64,000 nt of DNA from Escherichia coli (GCF_041886205.1 NZ_CP169029.1), one strand, 5' to 3'. Shown: positions 21,064 to 21,400, numbered from the stretch's first letter. Notes: generated from the sequence alone by a model not told the origin. A program made the numbers and translations.

Positions 21064-21140
21064 TGGTTGCGGGGGCCGGATTTGAACCGACGACCTTCGG
21101 GTTATGAGCCCGACGAGCTACCAGGCTGCTCCACCCCGCG
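21064..21140 (-). tRNA. metV: initiator tRNA-fMet (CAU anticodon), 77 nt, copy 3 of the tandem array
   Basis: Reverse complement is CGCGGGGTGGAGCAGCCTGGTAGCTCGTCGGGCTCATAACCCGAAGGTCGTCGGTTCAAATCCGGCCCCCGCAACCA, the E. coli tRNA-fMet1 sequence with encoded CCA. Confidence 0.96.
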
Positions 21141-21172
21141 TCACCGTACTGCTTTATTTCATCAAATTTGAT

Positions 21173-21249
21173 TGGTTGCGGGGGCCGGATTTGAACCGAC
21201 GACCTTCGGGTTATGAGCCCGACGAGCTACCAGGCTGCTCCACCCCGCG
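21173..21249 (-). tRNA. metW: initiator tRNA-fMet, 77 nt, copy 2
   Basis: Identical 77-nt sequence to the copy at 21064-21140; spaced about 109 bp. Confidence 0.96.
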
Positions 21250-21282
21250 TCACCGTACTGCTTTACTTCATCAAATTTTAAT

Positions 21283-21359
21283 TGGTTGCGGGGGCCGGAT
21301 TTGAACCGACGACCTTCGGGTTATGAGCCCGACGAGCTACCAGGCTGCTCCACCCCGCG
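21283..21359 (-). tRNA. metZ: initiator tRNA-fMet, 77 nt, copy 1 (promoter-proximal)
   Basis: Identical 77-nt sequence; first gene transcribed on the minus strand. Confidence 0.96.
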
Positions 21360-21365
21360 TCCGTG

Positions 21366-21400
21366 GATGCGCACTATACTCCGCTCGCGTTTTCATGCAA
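21366..21400 (-). promoter_or_regulatory. candidate sigma70 promoter of the metZWV operon (TTGCAT-N16-TATAGT with GC-rich discriminator)
   Basis: Minus-strand reading ggTTGCATgaaaacgcgagcggagTATAGTgcgcatcc immediately upstream of the first tRNA 5' end; the GCGC discriminator is typical of stringently controlled stable-RNA promoters. Confidence 0.55.

Follow-up and report, generated by a model that had tools for sequence, protein, structure and literature searches.

Most of the initiator tRNA of the cell in Escherichia coli K-12 is supplied by the metZWV operon (b2814-b2816). The features by which bacterial initiator tRNAs differ from elongator tRNA-Met have been described, with G46 marking tRNA-fMet1, the product of metZWV (PMC3017606). 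Promoter-down mutations of K-12 lie in the metZWV Pribnow box and directly upstream of it (PMC3017606); citing Nagase 1988, the same paper describes the start site as mapped and reports that ppGpp down-regulates the operon. Among the tDNAs of E. coli, metV is one of those most often used for integration (PMC7545054). In strain CFT073, this site is occupied by the 32-kb island PAI-metV (PMC3573123), named PAI-CFT073-metV in the nomenclature of Lloyd et al. The genes c3405-c3410 were placed inside PAI-CFT073-metV by Vieira and colleagues (PMC2831201), and the other part of this island is the T6SS cluster downstream of metV (PMC3032704; PMC2907695).

The window analyzed here is a 64,000-nucleotide stretch of E. 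coli DNA (GCF_041886205.1, NZ_CP169029.1) that includes the same locus. Its gene order, recC-ptrA-recB-recD, argA, amiC, the tRNA genes, mltA, tcdA, and csdE, is that of the E. coli chromosome at 63.5 min and is syntenic with K-12. The locus is the chromosomal metZWV operon of E. coli, already known and well studied. Taken as a whole, it is very probably a metZWV operon whose ancestral terminator was replaced by a hairpin borne by an island.

The metZWV operon and its initiator tRNAs

The tRNA genes, their spacers, and the flanking genes are as follows.

14245-15498, plus strand: amiC, the conserved left flank; the match to K-12 starts again 1 nt past its stop codon
21064-21140, minus strand: metV, the third tRNA-fMet1 gene (ARAGORN and Rfam), identical to K-12; its 3′ end is a known hot spot for integration of genomic islands
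21141-21282 (within), minus strand: the spacers flanking metW, 33 nt (21250-21282) and 32 nt (21141-21172), removed in tRNA processing
21173-21249, minus strand: metW, the second tRNA-fMet1 gene, an identical copy (ARAGORN and Rfam), identical to K-12
21283-21359, minus strand: metZ, the first tRNA-fMet1 gene, 77 nt, with anticodon CAU and an encoded CCA (ARAGORN and Rfam), identical to K-12 metZ
21568-22665, plus strand: mltA, the conserved right flank, divergent from metZ; RefSeq start at 21568

Exactly three tRNA genes were found by ARAGORN in the whole 64-kb window, all of them tRNA-Met(CAT) genes on the minus strand, with the anticodon CAT at position 35 and a canonical cloverleaf. In Infernal searches, each of the three matched the Rfam family RF00005 over the full model with 61.4 bits (E = 5e-12; the gathering score for this family is 29), and no RNA family beyond these tRNAs was detected against Rfam between positions 19000 and 23500 at E ≤ 1. 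The three 77-nt sequences are identical to one another and to K-12 metZ, metW, and metV, and their starts are 109 and 110 nt apart. ARAGORN and Rfam thus agree with the original prediction, made from the sequence of the window, of three perfect 77-nt tRNA-fMet copies at a spacing of about 109 bp. What was noted at this locus is real and goes far beyond what chance would produce.

The sequences carry the expected marks of initiator tRNAs. The 5′ end CGCGGGG faces the 3′ strand CCCCGCA, which results in a C1xA72 mismatch, seen as a non-canonical first pair in the cmscan alignment. The anticodon stem, UCGGG/CCCGA, is closed by three consecutive G:C pairs (29-31:39-41), the D stem contains A11:U24, and the variable loop AGGUC has the G46 of tRNA-fMet1. 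By these features, the three genes are recognized as initiator tRNA genes that form the metZWV operon. Their formylation by Fmt and IF2-dependent binding in the P site can be expected from their 100% identity to K-12 tRNA-fMet1. A single sigma-70 promoter of the rRNA/tRNA type would produce one transcript with three identical tRNA-fMet1 sequences, from which the three tRNAs would be cut out by the normal tRNA-processing nucleases.

The locus shares with K-12 metZWV the tRNA genes, the promoter and leader over the 61 nt upstream of metZ, where there is no difference, the unchanged metZ-metW spacer, and the mltA and amiC flanks; in the 211-nt stretch from metZ to the mltA start, a single position differs. 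The metW-metV spacer (21141-21172, minus strand) is 32 nt long versus 33 nt in K-12; it carries 1 substitution and has lost 1 nt from an A-run. The other difference from K-12 is that the native terminators of metV and amiC are missing and 5,562 bp with a different hairpin stand in their place. The tRNA genes themselves are intact, in line with the predicted lack of disruption, and the promoter is that of K-12. Open reading frames overlapping the tRNA genes had been dismissed as artefacts. The sole such frame of at least 90 aa (21286-22665, plus strand) is mltA extended upstream across metZ to an earlier TTG, and the real start of this gene is at 21568.

The number of tandem tRNA-fMet copies at this locus, counted as exact 3′-end matches, varies from 1 to 4 among Enterobacteriaceae and is mostly 3. 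Some copies in Citrobacter and Superficieibacter have substitutions in the T arm.

The metZWV promoter

The promoter elements, from upstream to downstream, are listed below.

21403-21410, minus strand: A8 tract just upstream of the −35 hexamer, possibly an UP-like element
21395-21400, minus strand: −35 hexamer TTGCAT, read directly from the sequence and identical to K-12
21373-21378, minus strand: −10 hexamer TATAGT, 16 nt downstream of the −35 hexamer
21360-21372, minus strand: GCGC discriminator (21372-21369) plus short leader, GCGCATCCACGGA, filling the gap from the −10 hexamer to the mature metZ 5′ end

Nine further nucleotides separate the GCGC from the mature metZ 5′ end. This arrangement, which the original prediction had read as TTGCAT-N16-TATAGT with a GCGC discriminator on the minus strand, is present as in K-12, and the pattern TTGCA(T/A)-N16-TATAGT-GCGC is found at 75 of the 76 loci retrieved from different species of Enterobacteriaceae. 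The −35 hexamer of the 75 loci is TTGCAT in 57 cases, TTGCAA in 16, and TTGCGT in 2; TATAGT is found in 74, and the 16-nt spacer and GCGC are found in all 75. The length of the promoter spacer is constant and its sequence variable, the block GAGTATAGTGCGC(A/T)TCCACGGA is near-invariant, and essentially all of these loci have a run of 5 to 8 A residues upstream of the −35 hexamer. Such a conservation pattern is a clear phylogenetic footprint.

A generic consensus scan for promoters and terminators between positions 20700 and 21900 reported nothing, so that neither the promoter nor the terminator discussed below is independently backed by a generic tool. The promoter escaped the scan because TTGCAT shares only 3 of 6 positions with TTGACA, and the terminator because a bulge interrupts its stem. 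The empty scan does not count against either element, as other data support both.

Two traits of stringent promoters are present, the GC-rich discriminator after the −10 hexamer and the sub-optimal 16-bp spacer. The 16-bp spacer, the GCGC immediately behind the −10 hexamer, and the A-tract that precedes the −35 hexamer are all shared with stringent promoters of the rrnB P1 type, from which metZWV differs in its −35 (TTGCAT) and −10 (TATAGT) hexamers. The stringent-type label given to this promoter in the original prediction is supported by the literature on the identical K-12 sequence, from which the window promoter would be the stringently controlled metZWV promoter. The start site and the ppGpp response in the window strain would likewise follow from its identity to K-12.

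The accessory segment between metV and amiC

Compared with K-12, the replaced DNA begins 2 nt beyond the CCA of metV and ends 1 nt beyond the stop codon of amiC. The segment and its genes are listed below.

15500-21061, no strand: accessory segment, 5,562 bp in place of the 70-nt ancestral metV-amiC spacer, corresponding to the c3405-c3410 PTS module of PAI-CFT073-metV
15757-16581, plus strand: gene for a BglG/LicT-type antiterminator (CAT_RBD and PRD domains in Pfam; RefSeq annotation of the identical region)
16613-18193, plus strand: gene for a PTS EIIC-EIIB transporter (Pfam PTS_EIIC, 1e-72, and PTS_EIIB)
18187-19401, plus strand: gene for a MalY/PatB-family enzyme of the class I/II aminotransferase fold (Pfam; RefSeq name)
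19370-19966, plus strand: gene for a KpsF/GutQ-like SIS-domain sugar-phosphate isomerase (Pfam SIS; RefSeq name)
20029-20985, plus strand: gene for a D-2-hydroxyacid/phosphoglycerate dehydrogenase-like protein (Pfam 2-Hacid_dh_C, 1e-48), the last of the module and convergent with metV

In K-12, the 70-nt spacer holds two terminators, one for metV and one for amiC. The segment that stands there in the window has a GC content of 31 to 45%, versus 50 to 57% in the flanks, and its five genes all code for regulatory, transport, or metabolic proteins, with no integrase or other mobility gene among them according to Pfam. A search of the whole window for a tRNA 3′-end repeat at the distal border, with up to 3 mismatches to GGCCCCCGCAACCAAT, returned only the three tRNA genes, so the module lacks an att-type repeat. 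An accessory island adjoining the operon had been predicted, and a low-GC segment does begin 2 nt past the metV CCA; the term “island” would be justified by its composition, its patchy distribution, and the outgroup comparison described below.

As judged by gene content, this segment is the PTS module of the published PAI-CFT073-metV without the T6SS part and is, as such, already known. The site between metV and amiC and the five-gene module c3405-c3410 are the same, as they are in strain UPEC_U013. In contrast to that island, the window has neither the ∼27-kb T6SS block nor a 41-nt repeat associated with it, the module abuts metV directly, and the module alleles are only ∼92% identical to those of UPEC_U013 and similar strains.

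For E. coli, a nucleotide identity of ∼92% over the module (15700-20985) is unusually low. Compared with strain E69, the MalY-family protein is 85% identical and the neighboring proteins 92 to 96% identical. This divergence suggests either long residence or repeated acquisition. In E. coli CAVp367 (locus L006, positions 6893 to 8921), IS1 has truncated the genes for the MalY-family protein and the dehydrogenase and the DNA between them has been removed; therefore, the module is decaying in some lineages.

Two further structures were noted at the amiC-proximal end of the segment. Upstream of the PRD antiterminator gene, at 15672-15745 (plus strand), the hairpin GGCAAGGCA...UGCCUUGCC is followed by U8, with a centroid dG of −26 kcal/mol and z = −4.8 over a 97-nt stretch. 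Ahead of this strong hairpin, and overlapping its left arm, is UUGUAACUGUUAAAUCAGGCAAGGC, a sequence that resembles the RAT motif of BglG/LicT. This region looks like a RAT/terminator leader that could be controlled by the module's own antiterminator. Just after the amiC stop codon, at 15507-15541 (plus strand), there is an A+U-rich perfect 14-bp inverted repeat, UUUAUUCAAUGAAU...GUUUCAUUGAAUAAA (dG of −13.8 kcal/mol), which stands where the amiC terminator would be in K-12 and has no U-run behind it.

The hairpin downstream of metV

Beyond metV, the minus strand of the window contains one more element of the operon.

21012-21046, minus strand: putative island-borne intrinsic terminator, with the stem AAACCGCAAU/AUUGCGGUUU, a small upper stem, and a following U7

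The stem occupies positions 21046-21016 and the run of seven U residues positions 21018-21012. The hairpin folds with a dG of −13.7 kcal/mol and z = −4.1, a value that none of 200 shuffled sequences reached, and it is located where metZWV converges with the PTS operon. Going by this predicted fold, the island hairpin most likely ends metZWV transcription.

In K-12, metV is followed by AACACCC-UAAC-GGGUGUU and U7 (sequence AUUAUUGAACACCCUAACGGGUGUUUUUUUG), after which a second hairpin serves the convergent amiC. The sequences of the window and K-12 diverge 2 nt past the metV CCA, and neither of the two K-12 terminators has a copy in the amiC-metV interval of the window. The outgroup set comprised 80 loci from different species of Enterobacteriaceae, anchored on MltA, of which 70 could be evaluated for the hairpin. 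The K-12-type hairpin was found in 60 of these 70, directly after the last tRNA-fMet gene and mostly with amiC close by, in the general form AACACC(C/U)-N3-5-(A/G)GGUGUU, or more loosely (A)CACC(C/U)-N3-5-(A/G)GGUG, followed by a U-run. The loci with this hairpin include those of E. albertii, Salmonella enterica subsp. diarizonae, Citrobacter, Enterobacter, Klebsiella, Kluyvera, Raoultella, Kosakonia, and Cedecea. The PTS module was present only in the E. coli representative and absent from the other 79. The K-12 arrangement is ancestral, and that of the window a derived replacement, as follows from these hairpin counts, the restriction of the module to the E. coli representative, and the low GC content of the segment.

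The original prediction had regarded the hairpin and U7 at 21012-21047 as the native metV terminator, with the island inserted just beyond it. The structure is there, at 21012-21046, in the right place and with its U7, and the T-run context TTTTTTTGT(A/T)T is similar to what follows the hairpin in K-12. However, its stem is unrelated to that of the K-12 hairpin, the divergence from K-12 already starts 2 nt past the CCA, and the window retains no K-12-type hairpin between amiC and metV, whereas such a hairpin is conserved in 60 of 70 loci, among them E. albertii, Salmonella, and Citrobacter. A native origin of the window hairpin is accordingly very unlikely: compared with K-12, the junction is unlike the native metV terminator, which goes against the prediction on its own terms. 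By this comparison, the hairpin is not the native terminator, and the native one has been lost. Nor can the terminator serve as the right-hand edge of the island, as had been proposed. Given the point of divergence from K-12 and the ancestral status of the K-12-type hairpin, the edge lies at 21061/21062 and the terminator is inside the island.

Population distribution and order of events

The distribution of these arrangements was examined in 5,426 complete E. coli genomes. The K-12-type junction is found in 3,503 of them (about 65%), the PTS module in 1,683 (31%), and the exact layout of the window, with the dehydrogenase gene, hairpin, metV, and metW contiguous, in 596. The last count was obtained with a longer BLAST query that can be covered only by the window layout; it replaced short junction queries because the two CCGCAA-type hairpins cross-match and the resulting counts overlapped. 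In the other module-carrying genomes that were opened, the T6SS island stands between metV and the module.

Two strains illustrate how the T6SS island is attached to this site. In UPEC_U013, ∼27 kb of T6SS island DNA separates metV from the module and has a 41-nt direct repeat, GGCCCCCGCAACCAAUUUAUUAGAAUGCUGACAAACCGCAA, on both sides. This repeat combines 14 nt from the tRNA 3′ end with the short spacer and the left stem arm of the hairpin seen in the window. Behind metV in this strain stands a chimeric hairpin that shares the stem arms and differs in the loop. Strain MEI2O1-23 has the T6SS island without the module. The metV-proximal end of its island supplies a CCGCAA-type hairpin, and at the far end, a 17-nt tRNA remnant is followed by intact K-12-type terminators and amiC. 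This layout is the classic signature of integration into the 3′ end of a tRNA gene with a rebuilt 3′ flank and directly shows that the CCGCAA-type hairpin comes with the island DNA.

The window module resembles tRNA-targeting integrative islands in that the variable DNA starts at the tRNA 3′ end and a functional 3′ flank, including a terminator, is restored; at metV, the T6SS island shows the classic displaced tRNA remnant as well. Unlike such islands, the window module has no tRNA-derived repeat or integrase gene, and its far end reaches the amiC stop codon. A horizontally acquired, low-GC PTS sugar-utilization module of 5.6 kb has replaced the 70-nt spacer, bringing its own terminator at the metV-proximal end and leaving the tRNA genes and promoter untouched. 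Because no integrase gene or direct repeat remains, the module would likeliest have arrived by homologous exchange anchored in the conserved flanks or be left from the decay of an older integration. Its borders, which are the exact ends of metV and amiC, fit homologous exchange.

The polarity of this replacement could in principle be the opposite, with the window layout ancestral for E. coli and the K-12 layout produced by deletion of the PTS module. The presence of the module in 31% of the complete genomes and its divergent alleles (∼92% identity at the nucleotide level and 85% for the MalY-family protein versus E69), which suggest long residence, would agree with that order. Still, the 70 nt found in K-12 and not in the window, whose two terminators are also kept in E. 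albertii, Citrobacter, and other genera, cannot be created by a simple deletion, and the absence of the module from the other 79 species representatives, together with its low GC content, which points to a foreign origin, makes this scenario hardly credible. A secondary origin of the window layout from a full PAI-metV (T6SS plus PTS) that lost its T6SS block by recombination between the 41-nt repeats deserves more weight, even though it is considered somewhat improbable. Recombination in the repeat of UPEC_U013 would leave the exact junction of the window with the loop of the distal copy, and by subtraction (1,683 − 596), some 1,087 genomes are expected to have the module behind a different insert, for instance the T6SS island, versus 596 with the module directly at metV. 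On the other hand, the repeat is equally expected if the T6SS island entered a window-type chromosome; as both events give the same junction, deletion and later insertion of the T6SS are both possible. The T6SS island is also found in a K-12-type background without the module, which indicates that the two blocks move independently. The question concerns the order of events alone, and the identity of the locus as metZWV with a replaced terminator does not depend on it.

CCGCAA-type hairpins in other genera

Every variant of the CCGCAA type folds into a strong hairpin with a U-run behind it. Strain E69 differs from the window in the upper stem, where C:G stands in place of U:A, a compensatory change. 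Among the outgroup loci, CCGCAA-like hairpins, distinct from the ancestral type, are located next to metV at two Citrobacter, one Lelliottia, and two Superficieibacter loci. In the two Citrobacter species, the amiC-metV gap contains a nine-gene chaperone-usher fimbrial operon (locus L027, positions 807 to 9378; locus L023, positions 692 to 9274), and in Lelliottia (locus L036, positions 1 to 9349), it contains VgrG and a 1,384-aa Rhs protein. At the two Superficieibacter loci, the hairpin follows metV without a large insert. None of the proteins TssB, TssC, TssK, VasL, and MucR of the E. coli T6SS island had a tblastn match in the 80 outgroup loci; the Citrobacter and Lelliottia islands at metV therefore carry different cargo, fimbrial or VgrG/Rhs as judged by Pfam.

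The CCGCAA...UUGCGG hairpin can be tentatively viewed as a portable terminator that travels with different metV islands or as a terminator native to metV in some donor lineage, acquired by homologous exchange through the tRNA gene and amiC; this proposal is held with less than even confidence. The cargo of a portable terminator may include the PTS module and the T6SS island in E. coli, the fimbrial operon in the two Citrobacter species, and VgrG/Rhs in Lelliottia. That the CCGCAA-like hairpins of the different genera represent one shared portable terminator is possible, with a likelihood well below even; alternatively, they could have arisen by convergence. If such a terminator does travel with the islands, each island that displaces the ancestral terminator would bring a related replacement, preserving the formation of the 3′ end of the essential initiator-tRNA transcript.

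Implications for metV islands

The literature already covers the operon with its promoter and stringent control, as well as the island at metV, and the importance of the present findings is small. One correction is useful: E. coli strains differ in the sequence that comes directly after metV, and the non-ancestral cases examined carry an island-borne substitute. Primers, recombineering arms, and annotation rules based on K-12 will not fit strains with such a substitute; a published metZWV knockout primer, for example, anneals to the K-12 terminator. Boundaries of metV islands should be called from 2 nt after the CCA and not from the end of the terminator. This locus illustrates clearly how an island can replace the terminator of an essential tRNA operon instead of leaving it in place.
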